DNA of 7,643 nucleotides. It comes from Candidatus Heimdallarchaeota archaeon. GTDB taxonomy: Archaea > Asgardarchaeota > Heimdallarchaeia > JABLTI01. Position 1 is the stretch's first letter. Each line of letters starts with the position of its first letter. A program made the position numbers and the translations under genes. The notes under the pieces are model-generated. The model was not told where the DNA came from. It was given only the letters and a program-made list of their open reading frames with translations, and did no database searches. This document shows, one piece after another, positions 2,976 to 5,426 of this stretch. Where the stretch lies: the NCBI GenBank assembly GCA_030614005.1, contig JAUWKS010000104.1, positions 1 through 7,643 of the forward strand. The letters run 5' to 3'.

Positions 2976-5426
2976 ATGTTTATAAAAATCATTAAATCGC
3001 TAATTAAATTTCTTTTTCTTGGAACTATATTCTTAATTTTATTGCTATCTCTCTCAGCTGGTTCTATTTCAGAGAAAATGGAATCTACTAACGATTTAGC
3101 TACTTTACCAATAGACAACAGTTCACTCTTCGAACTAAAAACAAGTGTGAGAGCTCCTTCCCTTATAGTTTCTCAAGTTTACGAAATAAATGATGATTAT
3201 ACCGGAGATAGTAATGGCGATGCAGATAATATAGTAGATGCTGGAGAAACCATTGAATTACGTTTAGAATTAGAGAACACTGGTGATCAAGGAGTTACAG
3301 ATGTTTATGGCAATTTAACTTCAACCAATCCATTTGTTTCTATAAGTTCCTCCAATCAAACATATATTGGGATTGCTGCTGGTGCAACGGGAATATCTAC
3401 TTCATACTATATCATCGAATTTGATAGCAAATTGAATGCTAGTGATATTATTAGTTTTAATTTAAATATAACTGCTAACGAAGGAACTTGGAACGATTCA
3501 TTTATCCTGACAGTTGTCGGTGTTCCTGAACCAATTTTCTATGGTCATATCGTTACAAACGAAGCTAATGGTGATTTAGATGCTGATGATGATGAAGTAA
3601 TTGATCCTGGTGAAGTAATTTCTATTCAGTTATACGTTGAAAATATTGGTGCAAGCCATCTCTTTGGCGCTGTTGGATATTTGTCCTCAACTGACTCATA
3701 TGTAACTATTCATGATGGTTTTGGGTCTTTTGGGACAATAGATGGAAATAGCAGTACAGACAATACAGAATATGGTTATTTTGGTATTACTGTGAGTGGT
3801 GGTTGCTCTCTACAGTATCGTATTCCTTTCAATCTCTCTCTAGTAGATGATTTTGGTCATTTTTGGAATTCAAGCATCGAGCTTGTTGTTAGTGGCCACC
3901 CTGAATATGACTTGTTGAACATTACTTTTGAGGAACACAATGGTGATGAAGACTCATATATGGATGCCGGTGAAACATGGTATGCAAGTATGACTATACG
4001 AAATATTGGTGATGCTATAGGTCCAAATGTCGTAGTTAGTATGACTTCAGATGATTCTGAAATAGAATTTTATTATTCAAATACTGATATTTCATTTGAT
4101 GATCTCTATGCTGGTTTTTCAGATACTAAGATTGGATCCTATGATTGGCAATTTACTATTTCTGATAGAGCTACAAAAGATCAACAATTGGATTTTGATA
4201 TTGTTATCAATGATGATAGTGGTGGACCAACAGATGTAATCAGCACTTCAGTACAAGTTGTTGGTGTTGCAGATTATGAGTTGCTTGAATTTGCGATAGT
4301 AGAGTATTGTTATTACGATGAAGAATGTAATGGTATCATCGATGCTGGAGACACATTTGAAGCAAATATCACTATTATGAATGTTGGTGAAGCAACTGGT
4401 AATGAAATTGATATTTATCTTTATACTAATGACCAGTATGTTGATTTCTATTATGGAAATGGTTCATTCAATACCATTGGTTCAATAGATGAAGGAGAGT
4501 CTAAATATGAGTATGATGTTTATGATTGGGAATTTACTATTTCAGAAAAAGCAAGAACAGGTCGAGTGCTTAATTTCACAATTGTTATTATTGATGCTTC
4601 CCTTAGAGAATGGCACTTTCCAGTTAGTATAGTAGTAGAAGATGGCCCAAATACTTTCTTTTACACCACTTTGGGTATTGTGACACTTATTGCTGCTCCT
4701 ATAGGCTTTATTGCATTTTGTGTGTTTCCGTATGTCAGAAAACGTGTCAAAGCTAACAAAGCTGGAACTGCAGTTAGTTTAAGTGACAATTTCAAAGACT
4801 GGCGGGAAGATAAAAAGAAGAAACGGGCAAAGAAACGCAAACAGCGTAACAAAGAACGCACTCAAAAACGGAAAGAGAAAGAAGCCATACGTCAAGAACA
4901 AGAAAGGAAAAGAATTGCAAACATAAATAAAAATGAAAAGAAATTACTTAAGAAATTTGAATCCATACTCGAGATGACCGAAAGTGTTGATATTTCCCAT
5001 GTTGCAAAGAGCCTTGCAATATCTGAATCACAATTATTCGAAAAGCTGATTCAATGGCAAGAAGTGCTCCCATTCAAAATTGATGGAGAATTCATAGAAG
5101 TAAAAGATACTGCTGATTTCACACAATCTGTTAAAGAAAAAATAGCTGAAATGTCTAAGTATTACACATGTTATCAATGCGGTTTTCCAATTGAAAGCAC
5201 TAGTCAGATATGTCCTGATTGTAAAAGTGATATCATTAAATGTGCAGTTTGCAAGTTGCCAATCTCATTTGGTGATGAGATAGGCAGTTGCGTTCTATGT
5301 GAAGCGAAAGGTCATTTAACGCATATGCAAGAATGGTTGAAAACTCAAGGAAAGTGCCCTGTTTGCTTACAAAAATTACCGGTCGAAGGACTAATGCAAA
5401 AGAAGACTAAATCGAAAAAGAAATGA
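2976..5426 (+). CDS. Single-pass membrane protein: signal peptide, 4 Ig-like/CARDB-like repeats, TM, basic helix, winged-helix (PCI-like), C4 zinc finger, RING (putative transmembrane E3 ubiquitin ligase-like receptor)
   Basis: Hydrophobic N-terminus (aa ~9-28). Four ~122-aa beta-rich repeats (aa 61-556). TM segment aa ~562-586. K/R/E-rich helix aa ~608-656. HTH plus wing aa ~655-712. C732-x2-C735-x10-C746-x2-C749. C756-x2-C759-x12-C772-x2-C775-x4-H780-x2-H783-x3-W787-x6-C794-P-x-C797. Confidence 0.85.
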   Translation: MFIKIIKSLIKFLFLGTIFLILLLSLSAGSISEKMESTNDLATLPIDNSSLFELKTSVRAPSLIVSQVYEINDDYTGDSNGDADNIVDAGETIELRLELENTGDQGVTDVYGNLTSTNPFVSISSSNQTYIGIAAGATGISTSYYIIEFDSKLNASDIISFNLNITANEGTWNDSFILTVVGVPEPIFYGHIVTNEANGDLDADDDEVIDPGEVISIQLYVENIGASHLFGAVGYLSSTDSYVTIHDGFGSFGTIDGNSSTDNTEYGYFGITVSGGCSLQYRIPFNLSLVDDFGHFWNSSIELVVSGHPEYDLLNITFEEHNGDEDSYMDAGETWYASMTIRNIGDAIGPNVVVSMTSDDSEIEFYYSNTDISFDDLYAGFSDTKIGSYDWQFTISDRATKDQQLDFDIVINDDSGGPTDVISTSVQVVGVADYELLEFAIVEYCYYDEECNGIIDAGDTFEANITIMNVGEATGNEIDIYLYTNDQYVDFYYGNGSFNTIGSIDEGESKYEYDVYDWEFTISEKARTGRVLNFTIVIIDASLREWHFPVSIVVEDGPNTFFYTTLGIVTLIAAPIGFIAFCVFPYVRKRVKANKAGTAVSLSDNFKDWREDKKKKRAKKRKQRNKERTQKRKEKEAIRQEQERKRIANINKNEKKLLKKFESILEMTESVDISHVAKSLAISESQLFEKLIQWQEVLPFKIDGEFIEVKDTADFTQSVKEKIAEMSKYYTCYQCGFPIESTSQICPDCKSDIIKCAVCKLPISFGDEIGSCVLCEAKGHLTHMQEWLKTQGKCPVCLQKLPVEGLMQKKTKSKKK
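3156..4643 (+). repeat. Four tandem protein-level repeats (~122-125 aa) in the ectodomain
   Basis: Each unit contains an acidic loop ending (V/I/M)D(A/P)G(E/D), then N-x-G, and ends V(V/S)G or VVE. Units: aa 61-182 (nt 3156-3521), 184-307 (3525-3896), 309-430 (3900-4265), 431-556 (4266-4643). Confidence 0.85.

Follow-up and report, generated by a model that had tools for sequence, protein, structure and literature searches.

The receptor gene and its product

The window analysed here is a 7,643-nucleotide stretch of DNA from a Candidatus Heimdallarchaeota archaeon; within a 3.6-Mb genome of 90% completeness, it is contig C106. Its central element is one gene, called the receptor gene in the following, which is a single unbroken open reading frame (ORF) at 2976-5426 on the + strand and codes for a product of 816 amino acids (aa). 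A first-pass annotation, made by a model from the sequence alone, had described this ORF as uninterrupted and as joining a signal peptide, four repeats, a single transmembrane helix, a winged helix, a C4 zinc finger and a RING with eight ligands. It had read the product as a receptor that links outside signals to ubiquitylation. All of these elements are present (Table 1). The observation is confirmed, and the interpretation is partly supported.

Upstream of the ATG, just five codons stay open in frame, and the start residues match those of the orthologues. A word-index protein search returned about 19 full-length relatives with identities of 50-80%. Where the source gives a name, these relatives are Heimdallarchaeota, Heimdallarchaeaceae or "Asgard group". 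The 12 Cys/His metal ligands of the zinc ribbon and the RING are invariant in the orthologue alignment, the eight of the RING in 13 orthologues. Hence, with about 19 full-length homologues in which these ligands do not vary, the gene is real. Its DNA is seen in marine-sediment and cold-seep metagenomes from several studies (public runs), and no RNA dataset that contains it is listed among these runs.

Table 1 Features of the receptor gene and its surroundings in the window (aa, residues of the 816-aa product)
Feature	Position	Strand	Evidence
Predicted N-terminal signal peptide or signal anchor, aa 1-30	2976..3065	+	Hydropathy scan; start shared with orthologues
Predicted acidic ectodomain, aa 31-560	3066..4655	+	Net charge -80; holds all 13 N-x-S/T sequons
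Four CARDB-like, beta-sandwich-type repeats (putative)	3159..4646	+	Repeat alignment, sub-threshold Pfam, ESM Atlas, NCBIfam
Predicted single transmembrane helix, aa 564-586	4665..4733	+	Mean hydropathy (Kyte-Doolittle, 19 aa) up to 2.48
Basic juxtamembrane linker and long helix, aa 587-666	4734..4973	+	Charge count; AlphaFold2 (AF2) helix aa 641-666
Predicted winged-helix domain and C-terminal helix, aa ~667-728	4974..5159	+	AF2, VIA-align
C4 zinc ribbon, C732-x2-C735-x10-C746-x2-C749	5169..5222	+	Ligand conservation; alignment to the first zinc site in the C-terminal domains of MIOS and WDR19
RING finger, C4-H2-C2 order	5241..5366	+	AF2, VIA-align, profile matches, conserved columns
Short C-terminal strand and Lys-rich tail, aa 798-816, then stop codon	5367..5426	+	Sequence; AF2
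Gene truncated at the window start, 3' part	1-759	+	Two 4Fe-4S ferredoxin-type motifs (Pfam Fer4, E 6e-12)
Metzincin-like protein, 659 aa	800-2779	-	Metzincin-type motif; Pfam Matrixin sub-threshold
Spacer 3' of the receptor gene (~440 bp)	5427-5868		
Stop-to-stop frame	5536-5682	+	
eRF1 domain 3/Pelota-like protein, 252 aa	5869-6627	+	Pfam eRF1_3 24.1 bits vs 25.8; TIGR00111 E 5.7e-6
DUF2196 member, 66 aa	6699-6899	-	Pfam 92.2 bits, E 1.9e-26

Topology and ectodomain

The N-terminus carries three Lys residues and a hydrophobic core (aa 5-30), followed by S-L-S-A-G, as predicted for a signal peptide or a signal anchor. The transmembrane helix is kept in every full-length orthologue. Behind it, aa 587-650 hold 27 K/R against 9 D/E in 64 residues, which gives a net charge of +18. 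The contrast between an acidic ectodomain and a basic juxtamembrane region that the first-pass annotation had described therefore stands. So does its count of 13 sequons, all before the transmembrane helix and none after it. They lie within aa 48-533, and a shuffle of the ectodomain that keeps its composition expects 6.2 ± 2.2. In the tail, the observed number is 0 at an expectation of 0.66. As so few are expected there, the zero of the tail is not significant by itself, and the informative part is the enrichment in the ectodomain. In 28 relatives with a type-I-like layout, sequons per 100 aa amount to 1.73 in the predicted ectodomain vs 0.48 in the tail, a difference in favour of this topology in the class as a whole.

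Hydropathy, charge and sequon distribution thus all predict the order ectodomain, transmembrane helix and cytoplasmic RING. The best explanation is that the gene product is a single-pass, type-I-like surface protein of a marine-sediment archaeon of the Heimdall group. Its ectodomain is probably N-glycosylated.

The four repeats of the first-pass annotation are present as units of about 123 aa (aa 62-186, 187-310, 311-433 and 434-557). They are 19-28% identical to each other and are visible by alignment only, as self-BLAST missed them. Each starts with an acidic D-x-D...D-(A/P)-G-(E/D) loop that is followed by N-x-G, and a late Phe is common to all, so that the shared core reads D-x-G...N-x-G...F. 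With the Pfam model CARDB (PF07705), the ectodomain reaches 20.4 bits vs a cut-off of 22.7; repeat 4 alone gives E 0.034, and the orthologue P0009 has a precomputed PF07705 match. The nearest ESM Atlas clusters are of the CARDB, Peptidase_C25_C, NPCBM_assoc and DUF11 types, with scores up to 0.93. NCBIfam models of secreted myxobacterial peptidases are matched in part, in their repeat regions. The distant matches by sequence are proteins secreted by bacteria, with C25-peptidase, FlgD-Ig, dockerin or Por-tail domains. In our reading, the repeats are CARDB-like beta-sandwich domains, and the acidic loop in each possibly binds calcium. Orthologues of the ectodomain occur in six of the ten other genomes of the genus, in none of the family's other genus (one genome) and in 1 of 48 genomes from other families of the class.

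The tail ends in a RING

Ribbon ligands: C732, C735, C746 and C749 do not vary among the orthologues, and their conservation in 144 family members is at least 99%.

RING ligands: C756, C759, C772, C775, H780, H783, C794 and C797 are 98-100% conserved across the same 144 members. The Trp and the C-P-x-C end that the first-pass annotation had pointed out are both there: W787 stands four positions after H783, and the domain ends in C794-P-V-C797, with L798 after the last Cys.

Fold: A shallow AF2 run on aa 640-816 with 13 orthologues gave a predicted local distance difference test score (pLDDT) of ~40 for the RING, which is unusable. AF2 was rerun on aa 725-812 with an alignment of 144 diverse family sequences. 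This model has a pLDDT of 89.3 and a predicted template modelling score (pTM) of 0.77, and it shows a beta-beta-alpha RING core with a helix at aa 781-791. We then searched aa 754-812 against 48,161 chains with VIA-align (all-against-all, 50 top matches listed). All of these top 50 matches are RING or U-box domains, with Z 5.1-7.9. The best is the Prp19 U-box (Z 7.9, root mean square deviation (rmsd) 1.6 Å over 56 residues). Ring1b-Bmi1 (Z 6.8), TRAF6 (Z 6.7) and RNF4 (Z 6.7) follow, together with CHIP, Pex RINGs and EL5. Ring1b-Bmi1, RNF4, TRAF6 and CHIP are ubiquitin ligases (E3s) seen bound to a ubiquitin-conjugating enzyme (E2). The C-terminus, which the first-pass annotation had allowed might fold as a non-RING, is thus modelled with confidence as a RING fold.

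Ligand order: Against the RING-H2 domain of RNF126, the profile alignment puts C756/C759 at ligands 1/2, C775 at ligand 3, H780/H783 at ligands 5/6 and C794/C797 at ligands 7/8. The position of the ligand-4 His of RING-H2 is Ala777 here, and C772, three residues before C775, fills the missing ligand. Hence, the ligand order of the RING is C4-H2-C2, and a CxxC knuckle replaces the CxH of RING-H2. From the fold matches, we infer a cross-brace, with C756/C759/H780/H783 on one zinc and C772/C775/C794/C797 on the other. Membership of the RING-H2 class (ATL/RNF43 type) was considered and ruled out, because ligands 3/4 are C772-x2-C775 and not C-x-H.

Pfam: The best single match on the tail is DZR (PF12773) with 26.4 bits vs 27.3 (aa 732-768), and 137 of the 144 family members match this model. 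Since C756-x2-C759-x12-C772-x2-C775 could on paper form a ribbon alone, the C-terminus might be a string of independent ribbons that bind zinc sequentially and do not form a RING. This is very improbable, because aa 754-812 fall in the RING/U-box fold: the AF2 core contains the helix at aa 781-791, the structure matches are RINGs and U-boxes, and the RING-H2 alignment places H780/H783 and C794/C797 at the last four ligands. At E≤0.01, zf-RING_2 matches 117 of the 144 members. Prok-RING_1 (PF14446) matches 79 of them (best 7.1e-9) and does not match the receptor itself at E≤0.01. Neither Prok-RING_1 nor DZR covers the ribbon and the RING as one module. On fold, ligand order and conservation, the C-terminus of the tail is confirmed as a true RING in the model.

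A large Asgard family with the same tail

The last 92 residues of the receptor were used as the query of an exhaustive profile search. At least 1,257 cluster representatives carry the ribbon+RING module at E≤0.001, and 231 do so at E≤1e-10. This genome has 20 copies at E≤1e-8, and 12 of them span ribbon and RING together. Four copies are receptor-like proteins of 745-1,020 aa with 11-15 sequons each (C106, which is the receptor, C25, C31 and C64). The remaining copies are several soluble proteins of 370-400 aa, short proteins with one or two transmembrane helices and copies with an in-frame stop. The paralogues share only the tail with the receptor, except that C25 and C42 also have the winged helix in common with it. 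Among 149 representative module clusters, 78 have at least one predicted transmembrane helix before the module, and 28 have the type-I-like layout. The architecture of the receptor is therefore not unique; the protein belongs to a large Asgard family in which the N-terminal parts are interchangeable.

Three RING-tail paralogues contain one in-frame TAG: G000:C67:46853-47506 (-), C95:19625-20356 and C24:6273-6887. In the C67 copy, the stop lies exactly at the position of the conserved RING Trp (…L-Q-E-stop-V-K…), as a change from TGG to TAG would give. This copy is thus probably a pseudogene.

We found no description of the ribbon+RING module, of its occurrence on receptor-like membrane proteins or of its link to the zinc domains of IFT-A and GATOR2/SEA in a literature search in which subscription literature was poorly covered. 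The work of Burroughs, Iyer and Aravind in 2011, which underlies the Prok-RING families of Pfam, may cover prokaryotic RINGs linked to membranes.

Kinship to the RINGs of Asgard ubiquitin operons

The genome itself encodes a canonical E2 of 157 aa on contig C29, with HPN and the catalytic Cys, and two further UQ_con-like ORFs. A 77-aa ubiquitin-like protein that ends in GG (contig C123) and three genes like ThiF or the ubiquitin-activating enzyme (E1), on contigs C123, C91 and C94, complete the set. The first-pass annotation had named two computational outcomes that would speak against its reading, a non-RING fold of the C-terminus and a genome that lacks an E2/ubiquitin system. As the fold is a RING and the ubiquitin and E2 genes are present, neither was found.

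Co-occurrence of the module with E2 was surveyed in 81 Asgard genomes, with a profile threshold of E≤1e-8 for the module and Pfam UQ_con for E2. Module and E2 occur together in 61 genomes, E2 only in 1, the module only in 0 and neither in 19. The latter 19 belong to five families that lack both throughout. Because related genomes are not independent, these counts represent a handful of concordant gains or losses and not 80 data points.

In 16 of the 81 genomes, the RING half of the profile matches ORFs of ~80-130 aa that lie 300-520 bp from the best E2 match. Three loci in other Asgard genomes (L031 = G060:C1:1061500-1064500, L032 and L033) are compact rows of a small RING, a ubiquitin-like gene and an E2. 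The RINGs in these rows have 81-86 aa, and the E2 carries HPN. The ubiquitin-like ORF of L031 is a pro-form that ends in G-G-S-V-K-Y, with a few extra residues behind the GG; those of L032 and L033 end in GG.

Residues 755-806 of the receptor (P0001) are 38-43% identical to the operon RINGs over 52-53 residues (BLASTP E 5e-14 to 2e-11). Both have the pattern C-x2-C-x11-12-C-x2-C-x4-H-x2-H-x3-W-x6-C-P-x-C. The operon RINGs are soluble proteins with a short conserved N-terminal arm and without ribbon, winged helix, transmembrane helix or ectodomain, and they adjoin the ubiquitin and E2 genes, whereas the receptor gene stands alone. Taken together, these comparisons support the placement of the receptor's RING half in the same family as the small RINGs of the Asgard RING-ubiquitin-E2 operons. 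According to a published report (bioRxiv 10.1101/2023.07.25.550441), the E1, E2 and RING E3 of an Asgard operon ubiquitylate a substrate in vitro, and we infer that this active E3 belongs to exactly the operon small-RING family.

Positions of the E2-contact type are among the best-conserved non-ligand columns of the 144-member alignment. They are V/I758 (95%), L761 (77%), P762 (76%), I763 (83%), W787 (89%) and P795 (97%). A predicted complex of the C29 E2 (157 aa) with aa 725-812 scored 0.31 vs a mark of 0.34 in a run without controls, a value that speaks neither for binding nor against it.

Eukaryotic relatives of the ribbon+RING module

A profile of the module was compared with all chains of the Protein Data Bank. 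Two groups of matches are interleaved in the ranking, and a shallower profile gave the same families. The first group is coat-like: WDR19/IFT144 (4.7e-7), MIOS (2.9e-6), a Leishmania IFT-A subunit (1.1e-5), WDR59 and WDR24 (4.5e-5 to 7.9e-5) and IFT122 (7.9e-5). The second group consists of RING-H2 ligases, namely RNF126 (3e-6), RNF24 (9.6e-6), Arkadia (2.5e-5), EL5 (4.4e-5) and synoviolin (6e-5), with weaker matches to RLIM and RNF38; RNF13 is also among the profile matches.

IFT144/WDR19, IFT122 and IFT172: The whole module superposes best on the zinc domain of IFT144/WDR19/DYF-2 (Foldseek TM-score 0.72-0.78, rmsd 2.1-2.3 Å, 81-88 columns), followed by IFT122 and IFT172. As in the receptor, a zinc ribbon is directly followed by a RING-like domain. 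Unlike the receptor, these proteins are soluble and coat-like, with a beta-propeller and a TPR/solenoid part in front, and some of their zinc sites are degenerate. In IFT172, the U-box-like end binds ubiquitin and gets ubiquitylated in vitro (PMC13290226).

MIOS/Sea4, WDR24/Sea2 and WDR59/Sea3: These GATOR2/SEACAT subunits come next in structure (TM-score ~0.5, rmsd 7-9 Å), values from which we conclude that the orientation of ribbon to RING differs. All 12 ligand positions align with those of the receptor. The likeness extends to C-x2-C at ligands 3/4, H-x2-H at 5/6, the Trp and the C-P end. The N-terminal part of these proteins is a propeller plus a solenoid, and the receptor has neither within its N-terminal 560 aa.

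In both groups, the zinc domains hold complexes together. The SEA RINGs heterodimerise within a cage, their removal dissociates the complex, and a ubiquitin-related role "remains to be determined" (PMC9646525). The zinc domains of IFT-A bridge subunits, chelation destabilises the complex, and the known role is structural (PMC10066299).

The tail of the receptor could accordingly be a non-catalytic assembly module of the SEA/GATOR2 and IFT-A kind that transfers no ubiquitin. It would pair with other tails of the family or with a cytoplasmic scaffold, so that surface proteins are kept together as homo- or hetero-oligomers or are anchored to a lattice inside the cell. The best whole-module matches (IFT144/WDR19, then MIOS, WDR24, WDR59, the Sea subunits and IFT122), the need of their complexes for such contacts (PMC9646525, PMC10066299), the ~20 tail-bearing proteins of the genome as many possible pairing partners and the missing linchpin residue all speak for this reading. 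However, the RING half is nearer to the operon RINGs (38-43% identity) than to the eukaryotic domains (15-33% in structure alignments), the E2-contact-type positions are strongly conserved, and the module tracks E2 across the Asgard genomes. We therefore regard a purely connecting tail as possible, if on the unlikely side. A connector role is nevertheless the main and a serious rival to ligase function, and the two could coexist. Many RING E3s act as dimers, so that ligase and assembly roles are compatible.

The winged helix and the neighbouring genes

In the AF2 run on aa 640-816, the winged helix (~aa 660-720) has a pLDDT of 84-91 and is preceded by a helix at aa 641-666. Foldseek on this shallow model gave no match below E 0.008. 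The VIA-align structure matches are the C-terminal domain of Cdt1 (Z 8.2) and winged helices of the MarR/PadR and PCI types (Z 7-8), the latter from CSN7, eIF3 and the proteasome lid; UFL1/DDRGK1 match too, and all types lie within one Z unit. On the model, the matches are generic, and no type stands out.

The 659-aa metzincin-like protein next to the receptor is encoded divergently to it. It has an N-terminal anchor, many sequons and a C-terminal transmembrane helix with a basic stub, and it contains the motif H-E-x-x-H-x-x-G-x-x-H (HEIGHVLGFAH). In the Atlas, the clusters closest to it are unnamed families of archaea (Bathyarchaeota) and Chloroflexota. The two genes adjoin in 4/5 genomes of the genus that were examined: the arrangement is divergent in this genome and in G012, it is convergent in G006 and G033, and in G030 the genes are not neighbours. 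This adjacency could be plain synteny of the genus, or the two may work as a pair, with the protease shedding the ectodomain.

Taken together, winged helix and protease would also fit a membrane-tethered, nucleic-acid-binding regulator with the ectodomain as sensor, which would act at the membrane or after proteolytic release of the tail. DNA-binding domains of the MarR/PadR/ArsR type match the winged helix as well as other kinds do (Z ~7-8), the linker with its 27 K/R in 64 aa is strongly basic, weak helix-turn-helix (HTH)-type Pfam matches to ANT, HTH_6 and NUMOD1 occur on the receptor, and the gene for a membrane-anchored, metzincin-like protease adjoins. On the other hand, protein-binding winged helices of the PCI and UFL1/DDRGK1 types match equally well, and no recognisable DNA-recognition family reached the cut-off in the Pfam scans of the receptor. 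The conserved output part is a RING fold and not a DNA-binding zinc finger, and a winged helix is missing from most family members that share the tail. Such a regulator is quite improbable.

On the other side of the receptor gene lies an unusually long spacer. A frame within it, defined from stop to stop, would encode a hydrophobic helix followed by R-K-K-K-N. The next gene codes for a 252-aa protein that has only the C-terminal eRF1 domain 3/Pelota-like part and a very basic N-terminus. It is found with 70-88% identity in three genomes of the genus, at 5.6 kb from the receptor gene in G012 and on other contigs in G006 and G030. The 66-aa ORF behind it is a clear DUF2196 member. Searches of the window for tRNAs and Rfam families gave no match.

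A proposed membrane-anchored RING E3-type receptor

On balance, we lean towards a membrane-anchored RING E3-type receptor as the reading of this protein. A membrane-anchored ubiquitin ligase is plausible because the RING is of the kind that is encoded beside Asgard ubiquitin and E2 genes. The first-pass annotation had likened the protein to the single-pass RING ligases RNF43/ZNRF3 and ATL of eukaryotes. The likeness in predicted layout holds: plant ATL proteins and RNF13/RNF43/ZNRF3 also have an outer or luminal part, one transmembrane helix and a cytoplasmic RING with Trp and C-P-x-C, and ATL33 and ATL45 are among the fold matches of the tail. It does not extend to the details. These ligases have the order C3-H2-C3, where the receptor has C4-H2-C2, and they have neither zinc ribbon nor winged helix. 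In the ATL/PA-TM-RING proteins, the ectodomain is a PA domain or absent, and that of the receptor appears CARDB-like. The likeness is thus an analogy of layout and not shown descent. The functional claim is plausible, and it is better grounded through the kinship to the operon-type RINGs and the co-occurrence with E2.

Outside the cell, the four acidic repeats would form a binding or adhesion part specific to the genus. Inside, the basic helical linker and the winged helix would be followed by the tail of ribbon and RING with its three zinc ions. As a RING-type E3, this tail would recruit the organism's E2, charged with the ubiquitin-like protein, to the membrane. The targets of ubiquitin transfer may be the receptor itself or neighbouring proteins that are bound, for instance, by the winged helix. 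In this way, ubiquitylation at the membrane would be coupled to anything that the ectodomain binds or on which it clusters.

Several findings weigh against a ligase. The receptor's own Pfam RING score is 15.7-20.8 bits vs a curated cut-off of 27.3. The linchpin position is L798 and not Arg, a caveat already raised in the first-pass annotation; across the family, this column has L in 42%, Q in 19%, R in 9% and K in 9%. A linchpin Arg/Lys aids activity and is not needed for membership of the fold. No ubiquitin, E1, E2 or JAB gene is found near the receptor gene or near the orthologues P0007, P0008, P0010 and P0011, and gene contexts differ among the receptor orthologues. The co-occurrence with E2 rests on few independent lineages, as seen from the five families without both. 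Finally, among solved structures, the module as a whole is most closely related to the zinc domains of IFT144/WDR19, IFT122 and GATOR2/SEA, which in IFT-A and GATOR2/SEA are structural connectors between subunits and whose ligase role is putative (PMC9646525, PMC10066299).

More tentatively, the receptor may stand for a class of Asgard surface receptors with a common tail that ubiquitylates at the membrane when the ectodomain binds, and this tail may be the ancestor of the zinc domains of GATOR2/SEA and IFT-A. We think this wider proposal doubtful as it stands. If true, it would describe a prokaryotic system of outside-in ubiquitin signalling or of receptor turnover. To our knowledge, the RING E3s and the working E1-E2-E3 cascade described so far from Asgard archaea all consist of small soluble proteins. 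In the receptor and at least 27 further type-I-like clusters (of 149), the RING is predicted to follow a transmembrane helix and a large ectodomain that resembles glycoproteins. Should the tail prove active, cell-surface-coupled ubiquitylation, a hallmark of receptor regulation and endosomal sorting in eukaryotes, would predate the eukaryotes. The link of the ribbon+RING module to the zinc domains of IFT-A and GATOR2/SEA would provide a concrete prokaryotic candidate for their origin, and the tail family may serve as a simple system for asking whether such zinc domains began as ligases or as connectors.

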